39,152 nt of DNA from a phage. This document shows positions 33,655 to 34,044 of the stretch, piece by piece (the stretch's first letter is position 1; the number at the start of each line of letters is the position of its first letter). The stretch lies in sequence record PX759567.1. One strand, written 5' to 3'. A program made the position numbers and the translations under genes. The notes below the pieces were generated by a model. That model was not told where the DNA came from. It worked only from the letters and a program-made list of their open reading frames with translations, and ran no database searches.

Positions 33655-34044
33655 GTGTTCTCCACATACCAAAAGTCCATTATCAAATCTGACGGGTATT
33701 TCAAGGAATGCTGGCTTAGGCCAGACCGTTTAGAAGCTCAGAAAGTAGCATCCTCTAAGTGCGGAGTAATCTGGCAGAGAAAGAAGAGGGCTGAAGCGAA
33801 GCAATGGGTAGATGCCTTTAAGGTTGAGAAAGGGTGTGCTATGTGCGGGTACAATGCCCATCCTGCTGCTCTGGACTTTGACCACATTGATAGAAGTACA
33901 AAGGCGTTTGAAGTGAGTCAATTCCTTGGAATAAAGTCAGATGAAGACATTAAGCTAGAGATAGCGAAGTGTCGCGTTATGTGTGCAAACTGTCATAGGA
34001 TAAAATCATATGAGAACAAAGATCACCTTAAGCGCTCCACCTGA
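33655..34044 (+). CDS. HNH homing endonuclease (zinc-finger type)
   Basis: 129-aa ORF from GTG 33655 (no in-frame ATG near the start); motifs CAMCGY...DFDHIDRS...CANCHRIK. Confidence 0.8.
   Translation: MFSTYQKSIIKSDGYFKECWLRPDRLEAQKVASSKCGVIWQRKKRAEAKQWVDAFKVEKGCAMCGYNAHPAALDFDHIDRSTKAFEVSQFLGIKSDEDIKLEIAKCRVMCANCHRIKSYENKDHLKRST

Follow-up and report, generated by a model that had tools for sequence, protein, structure and literature searches.

A probable nonsense allele of an HNH endonuclease gene between genes 1.7 and 1.8 of a T7-like phage

The HNH gene and its neighbours

The window analysed here, that is, the whole stretch of 39,152 nucleotides of phage DNA in sequence record PX759567.1, is a circularly permuted complete T7-like phage genome that shares 92-94% identity with T7, 13a and the phiA1122 group. 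Gene 5 (DNA polymerase, ~704 aa) runs continuously across the window ends (1-1843 and 38881-39152), which have no duplicated terminal repeat in common. An HNH-type nuclease gene lies between genes 1.7 and 1.8, where the original prediction had placed it, and the gene 1.7 found here is the short DUF3310 gene. The main features of the locus are as follows.

33090..33108, plus strand: T7-type class II promoter, phi1.6-like, with 1 mismatch, at the position annotated for 13a
33378..33608, plus strand: short gene 1.7, 76 aa, DUF3310 / 'nucleotide kinase' family (Pfam PF11753, E=3e-25; PHROG nucleotide-kinase families)
33578..33583, plus strand: Shine-Dalgarno GGAGGA, read from the sequence, serving ATG 33589
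33589..34044, plus strand: full HNH endonuclease gene, 151 codons plus stop, interrupted at codon 21
33589..33651, plus strand: 5' fragment of 20 codons, MKRINPKTGEPFKRGDVRED, ending at the premature TGA (from translation and homologue alignments)
33649..33651, plus strand: premature stop TGA, a G-to-T change at 33649 that turns Gly21 GGA into TGA
33655..34044, plus strand: 3' fragment, the 129-codon GTG ORF, the only possible restart product
33835..33996, plus strand: HNH/zinc-finger core (C83xxC86, D98-H99, C128, C132xxC135-H136)
34010..34183, plus strand: gene 1.8, 57 aa, with its ATG and first 35 nt inside the HNH 3' end in another frame

The 129-codon ORF beginning with GTG 33655, the in-frame TGA at 33649-33651 and the 35-nt overlap with gene 1.8 from ATG 34010 are all present as first described. 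The same description held that no in-frame ATG exists near the 5' end, which is correct downstream of the TGA only, but ATG 33589 stands 60 nt upstream of this stop, behind GGAGGA. ATG 33589, TGA 33649 and GTG 33655 share one frame, the ATG lies 66 nt upstream of the GTG, and the 129-codon ORF is the downstream 86% of a 151-codon gene whose terminal stop is TGA 34042-34044. Translation from 33589 reads MKRINPKTGEPFKRGDVRED, then the stop, then YVFSTYQK and onwards. All relatives have N-termini homologous to the 20 codons that lie between ATG 33589 and the TGA, and PHROG 3106 ('HNH endonuclease') aligns with residues 1-149 of the repaired protein (E=2e-51), therefore these 20 upstream codons belong to the family. 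The original prediction had itself named homologues that place the ORF within a longer gene as the outcome that would speak against it, and the homologues do so, the longer gene being the one of 151 codons.

As judged from the intact orthologues, the native start of the HNH gene is ATG 33589. The GGAGGA is separated from this ATG by 5 nt (33584-33588), or by 6 nt if counted from the GGAGG core, and is unchanged in phiA1122, EFA-2, YpsP-G, L008 and Bas102. The ATG is located inside the 3' end of the short gene 1.7, with a 20-nt overlap, and this overlap together with the GGAGGA indicates that translation of the HNH gene is probably coupled to that of gene 1.7. GTG 33655 as the start of the gene is not supported, because intact orthologues (phiA1122, EFA-2) start at an ATG matching 33589 and the aligned homologues have Gly at codon 21; the 'GTG start' is an artefact of the nonsense codon, which arose by change of GGA to TGA. 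GTG 33655 has no Shine-Dalgarno sequence, and the weak GA-rich element once assigned to it is merely the coding sequence for V-R-E-D. The promoter at 33090..33108 would transcribe genes 1.6, 1.7, HNH, 1.8 and 2.

The gene 33589-34044 is not a chance ORF, as seen from the PHROG 3106 match and the 93-94% identity to annotated phage proteins. The zinc-finger HNH pattern recognized at the outset is borne out: the window protein contains a catalytic His after Asp and two CxxC zinc-ligand pairs with a CxxCH ending, namely CAMCG (C83xxC86), DFDH (H99 at 33883-33885) and CANCH (C132xxC135-H136) in full-gene numbering, and C83xxC86, D98-H99 and C132-A-N134-C135-H136 are invariant or at least 90% conserved across 18-34 homologues. 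In addition to phrog_3106 (E=2e-51), HNH matches were obtained with phrog_2255 (4e-25) and phrog_4234 (8e-12). Pfam PF01844 (HNH) stayed below its gathering score of 21.4, at 18.4-19.2 bits, with a match confined to the C-terminal half of the motif. An AlphaFold model was made of P0001, a homologue 93% identical to the window protein, and reached a pLDDT of 94; in it, residues 1-43 form an N-terminal beta region, residues 45-81 a long helix and residues 82-142 the HNH core. Foldseek with this model returned 57 BFVD matches at E<=1e-3, the great majority among the matches listed being named HNH or HNHc, and the top PDB structural matches were Gme HNH, Cap5 and Cas9 HNH. A profile search of PDB sequences found no relative, and the similarity to solved structures is undetectable at the sequence level. 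According to the model, the product of gene 33589-34044 has an HNH fold. The 3' fragment 33655..34044 retains the long helix and the complete HNH/zinc core, but only part of the N-terminal beta region.

Orthologues, decay alleles and distribution

Megablast of the region gave ten records with full coverage at ~93% identity, including phiA1122, Y, R, YpP-Y, YpP-R, YpsP-G and EFA-2. In Yersinia phage phiA1122 the gene is p09 (NP_848271.1 / AAP20507.1; 156 aa, 6383-6853; RefSeq name HNH endonuclease), an identical gene occurs in phages Y, R, YpP-Y and YpP-R, and Enterococcus phage EFA-2 encodes a 151-aa version (QJT70346.1). Intact 151-aa forms are common, and one such sequence was found on 36 contigs. 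Both phiA1122 and EFA-2 annotate uninterrupted CDSs from the ATG matching window 33589. The proteins of these two phages share 93-94% amino-acid identity with the window over residues 1-151, and they have in common with it the ATG, the Shine-Dalgarno sequence, the 20-nt overlap with gene 1.7 and the overlap with the gene 1.8 start; phiA1122 and the window also share the gene order 1.6, short 1.7, HNH, 1.8 and 2. The window gene differs from these relatives by TGA for GGA at codon 21, and it also has a few substitutions (S55A, D109E, L132M and H150R) and the shorter, EFA-2-type C-terminus. The colinear identity and the flanks expected of a p09 orthologue are thus present, but the frame from the shared ATG is interrupted. 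On sequence evidence, the window copy is a disrupted allele of the phiA1122 p09-type gene and not an intact member.

Glycine occupies codon 21 in all 17 aligned homologues (15 database homologues, P0001-P0015, of 130-168 aa with identities down to 40%, plus phiA1122 and EFA-2), where it is part of the conserved GDVREDG motif. Among the six relatives with DNA, this codon is GGA in phiA1122, EFA-2, L008, L010 and YpsP-G and GGT in L014, and the three-way DNA alignment shows GGA in phiA1122 and EFA-2 versus TGA in the window. The 129 codons that remain are free of stops, the catalytic and zinc residues are preserved, and the window gene differs from that of phiA1122 by just 4 synonymous and 10 nonsynonymous changes, all of which argues that the lesion is recent. 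Beyond the TGA at codon 21, no second stop or frameshift was found in the window HNH gene. Relaxed selection cannot be shown from so few window-specific changes (~2 synonymous, ~5 nonsynonymous and 1 nonsense). The HNH family is under purifying selection (dN/dS 0.12-0.19 against L008) and so functional elsewhere, and a copy that stops at codon 21 of 151 next to such intact orthologues would count as a pseudogene, a label that hangs on one base since the window copy has no further decay. An exact-sequence search of public assemblies for the 129-aa ORF, the 57-aa gp1.8 and the 76-aa gp1.7 gave no match, and a degenerate DNA pattern across the lesion retrieved only phiA1122 from IMG/VR and nothing from the JGI metagenomes; neither reads nor another assembly of this genome turned up.

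Two relatives carry other disrupted forms of the gene. In Yersinia phage YpsP-G, the same gene appears as gp12 (YP_009799285.1, 134 aa), broken between codons 21 and 22; the annotated CDS begins at the same GTG, and the GTG-bounded downstream ORF is the same as in the window. The lesion in YpsP-G (region ~395-406 of its locus) consists of one extra G (+1) immediately behind codon 21; being a frameshift as opposed to the nonsense change in the window, it arose independently. Escherichia phage MeretOppenheim_Bas102 shares the short 1.7 and the 1.8 flanks with the window and has lost the HNH body by a 403-nt deletion between AGGATAAA(A)TC imperfect repeats, keeping the first 16 and last ~37 nt. 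The window copies of these repeats are as follows.

33595..33604, plus strand: left copy of the imperfect direct repeat, AGGATAAATC, at the junction of the Bas102 403-nt deletion
33997..34007, plus strand: right copy of the imperfect direct repeat, AGGATAAAATC, at the junction of the Bas102 403-nt deletion

The annotated 87-aa 'nucleotide kinase' of Bas102 (gene 1.7, XPK42544.1, at 679-942 of its locus) is the short gp1.7 fused in frame to the last 12 HNH residues. Because Bas102 gp1.7 ends in the HNH C-terminal tail, this phage is a deletion derivative, not a naive empty site, and it is the end stage of the loss that begins in the window. With a single nonsense codon as its sole damage, the window allele fits as the earliest decay stage. 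Further truncations are suggested by cluster members of 92 aa and 66 aa.

The HNH gene was found in 10 phage records and many metagenomic contigs, and is absent in T7, 13a and most of the 184 flank-matching records. In T7 and 13a the HNH gene is missing and gene 1.7 is a different, long one; their homology to the window is lost from ~33380 to 34035. The presence/absence polymorphism expected of a mobile gene was thus found at one locus among close relatives, including the scarred deletion in Bas102, and the arrangement is like a homing endonuclease cassette, as the original prediction had it. The family also keeps to one target neighbourhood, directly 3' of gene 1.7/DUF3310, in Teseptimavirus (the window, L008 and L010-14), Teetrevirus (536_P3 and 6996) and Drulisvirus (the KP34 group). 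In Teseptimavirus contigs the HNH gene adjoins either the short or the long 1.7; the short gene 1.7 with the same overlap onto HNH is also present in phiA1122, EFA-2 and KP34, and in the KP34 group the overlap of the kinase stop with the I-N-P-K codons of HNH is conserved. In KP34 (NC_013649.2), at 1501-1983 of the locus examined, gene 36 is annotated as HNH from an internal ATG (1573), and family homology starts 24 codons earlier, at a TTG after AAGGTGG. The annotated start of KP34 gene 36 is probably too short and the true start is likely this TTG, since the TTG start overlaps the end of the DUF3310 gene as in T7-like phages.

The same 57-aa gene 1.8 (PF26839) is carried by L008. The N-terminal ~22 codons of gene 1.8 (34010-34075) have no counterpart in 13a or T7 gp1.8, where homology begins at about SEWCH. 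As these codons lie in or just past the HNH 3' end and are absent from 13a and T7, the start of gene 1.8 was apparently supplied by the inserted module. Compared with phiA1122, dS is 0.02-0.05 in the short 1.7 plus HNH (33378-34044) and 0.10-0.33 in genes 1.3, 1.6, 2.5 and 3, all from small counts, and this mosaic pattern suggests recent lateral exchange of the two-gene module 1.7 plus HNH.

Readings of the premature stop

The locus most probably contains a recently inactivated or strongly attenuated free-standing homing-type HNH endonuclease gene with a nonsense mutation at codon 21. On this reading, a p09-type HNH gene of PHROG 3106, which appears to travel immediately 3' of DUF3310/gene 1.7 in Autographiviridae, would have suffered a G-to-T transversion at 33649 that made TGA of its Gly21 codon. 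Ribosomes would then release a 20-residue peptide at TGA 33649, and the nuclease domain (codons 23-151) would not be made at normal levels. UGA followed by U is an efficient terminator. Residual product could arise by low-level UGA readthrough or by termination-reinitiation at GUG 33655, 3 nt past the stop, which would give a protein without residues 1-22. Nuclease activity is presumably lost in the window allele, and expression limited by a poor start, as was suggested earlier, is better described as expression interrupted by a premature stop. Homing endonuclease genes usually pass through a cycle of gain, degeneration and loss, in which this allele would be an early step.

A sequencing or assembly error, in which the true codon 21 is GGA and an intact 151-aa HNH endonuclease is made from ATG 33589, would account for a lesion of one base in an ORF that is otherwise intact, with all catalytic residues present. 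The site also lies within a stable hairpin, a context that can trouble some chemistries, and the YpsP-G lesion, 3 nt off in the same loop, could equally mark an error-prone spot. However, all other large genes have their full length, and gene 5 is intact over the junction at which the genome closes into a circle, so the assembly looks clean. Hairpin artefacts are, as a matter of general knowledge, typically indels rather than G-to-T substitutions, and with ~14 real substitutions against the nearest relatives, one more in a dispensable gene is unremarkable. We therefore regard an error as rather unlikely, and the T at 33649 as likely real.

The hairpin is the following.

33630..33671, plus strand: mRNA hairpin, ~-19 kcal/mol, z = -4.95, with the TGA in the loop and GTG 33655 in the 3' stem

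It is found in phiA1122, EFA-2 and L008 and is absent in L010, L014 and KP34. Between the window and L008 one stem pair is changed on both sides (G:C to U:G), by two synonymous substitutions. As a conserved RNA element the hairpin was considered and set aside as incidental, being limited to the close lineage and missing in L010, L014 and KP34. A quasi-palindrome template-switch origin of the mutation is unsupported as well, since the G-to-T change breaks a stem pair and the palindrome is not perfected.

It is very unlikely that a functional, down-tuned 129-aa HNH protein is made from GTG 33655, either independently or by reinitiation after the 20-codon ORF. The GUG stands 3 nt past the stop, which by general knowledge is within the range of bacterial reinitiation, the entire HNH/zinc core is kept, and the annotated YpsP-G CDS begins at the same GTG. 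Against this, the GTG is preceded by no Shine-Dalgarno sequence and is base-paired in the -19 kcal/mol stem. Codon 23 is ATA (Ile) in L010, ATC (Ile) in KP34 and CGT (Arg) in 536_P3, which argues that there is no conserved internal start. The residues 1-22 that would be lost are highly conserved (R3, N5, G15, D16, R18, E19, D20 and G21) and are modelled in P0001 at a pLDDT of 94 within the N-terminal beta region; from this conservation and confident modelling, their loss probably matters and would be damaging. In YpsP-G, moreover, the upstream frame, once shifted, runs on to ~40 nt beyond the GTG, so that simple restart does not explain that allele.

The window and YpsP-G have thus been disrupted independently at sites 3 nt apart in the same hairpin loop, the former by GGA to TGA and the latter by +1 G. 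For a gene of 456 nt, the post hoc probability that a second random lesion falls within 4 nt is about 2%, and the coincidence could be due to chance, to a mutational or sequencing-prone spot, or to selection for attenuating alleles. That codon 21/22 is a recurrent, selected attenuation point, with a trickle of truncated HNH protein of altered activity or toxicity produced by restart at GUG 23, seems to us a long shot; if true, it would mean that the conserved N-terminal 22 residues can be uncoupled from the nuclease.

Programmed recoding of the UGA, by selenocysteine or by Trp/Gly readthrough that yields a regulated low level of full-length protein, can practically be dismissed: UGA is known as the leakiest stop in enterobacteria and a low level of toxic nuclease would be adaptive, but all homologues have a Gly codon and none has UGA at position 21, the UGA lies in a hairpin loop and not 5' of a SECIS-like stem-loop, the genome has no tRNA genes and hence no suppressor tRNA, the Rfam search gave no element here, the UGA-U context favours termination, and TGA is an ordinary stop that ends 5 of the 23 large ORFs, the HNH gene included.

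Comparison with known nuclease genes

The HNH gene, probably inactivated recently, is an ordinary case, a known gene family in a known position, here present as a nonsense allele, and it leaves the current understanding of homing endonucleases unchanged. For annotation it is of practical weight, for gene callers would report a 129-aa GTG 'HNH endonuclease', as has already happened for YpsP-G. Together with its relatives it forms a natural decay series for one nuclease in T7-like phages, from the intact gene through nonsense or frameshift alleles to a scarred deletion, and the link of the nuclease to DUF3310/gene 1.7 across three Autographiviridae genera hints at where its target may lie.

Elsewhere in the genome, gene 19 (terminase large subunit) is split into 21972-22460, ending in ...ADIIIADD, and 23291-24568, with ~830 nt between them. 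Rfam RF00028 (group I intron) matches at 22415-22678 with 49 bits (gathering score 50; E=3e-11), and this match ends ~610 nt ahead of the second gene 19 exon. A 200-aa ORF (22662-23264) is also found in the gap. The same layout is annotated as split terminase plus HNH endonuclease in Salmonella phages Vi06, CHRF_10027 and Sal_R1S, and the split gene 19 arrangement of Teseptimavirus PDP351P2 is 99% identical to that of the window. Just past gene 19 there is a free-standing 153-aa ORF (24606-25067) with a Pfam HNH_3 match (E=2.7e-9), which is probably the 'first' HNH endonuclease implied when the present gene was called the second.

A general cycle of invasion, degeneration and loss has been described for homing endonuclease genes (PMC2790892, PMC10448857). 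The searchable literature contains no demonstration of homing, of a cleavage site or of marker exclusion for this HNH family, and its homing role is proposed by analogy. The core of the protein, CxxC...DH...CxxCH in a beta-beta-alpha-metal arrangement, is common to Gme HNH (PDB 4H9D) and the BFVD phage HNH proteins. As compared to the Gme HNH-type nicking endonucleases, this family adds an N-terminal beta region (1-43, with GDVREDG) and a 37-residue helix. In its genomic setting, the window gene is like the free-standing homing endonuclease genes of T4, mobE and the seg genes, which are likewise small nuclease genes between conserved genes, and it resembles free-standing homing endonucleases in being patchy among close relatives, in having a flanking module that seems, on small counts, less diverged than the rest of the genome, and in occurring as defunct alleles.
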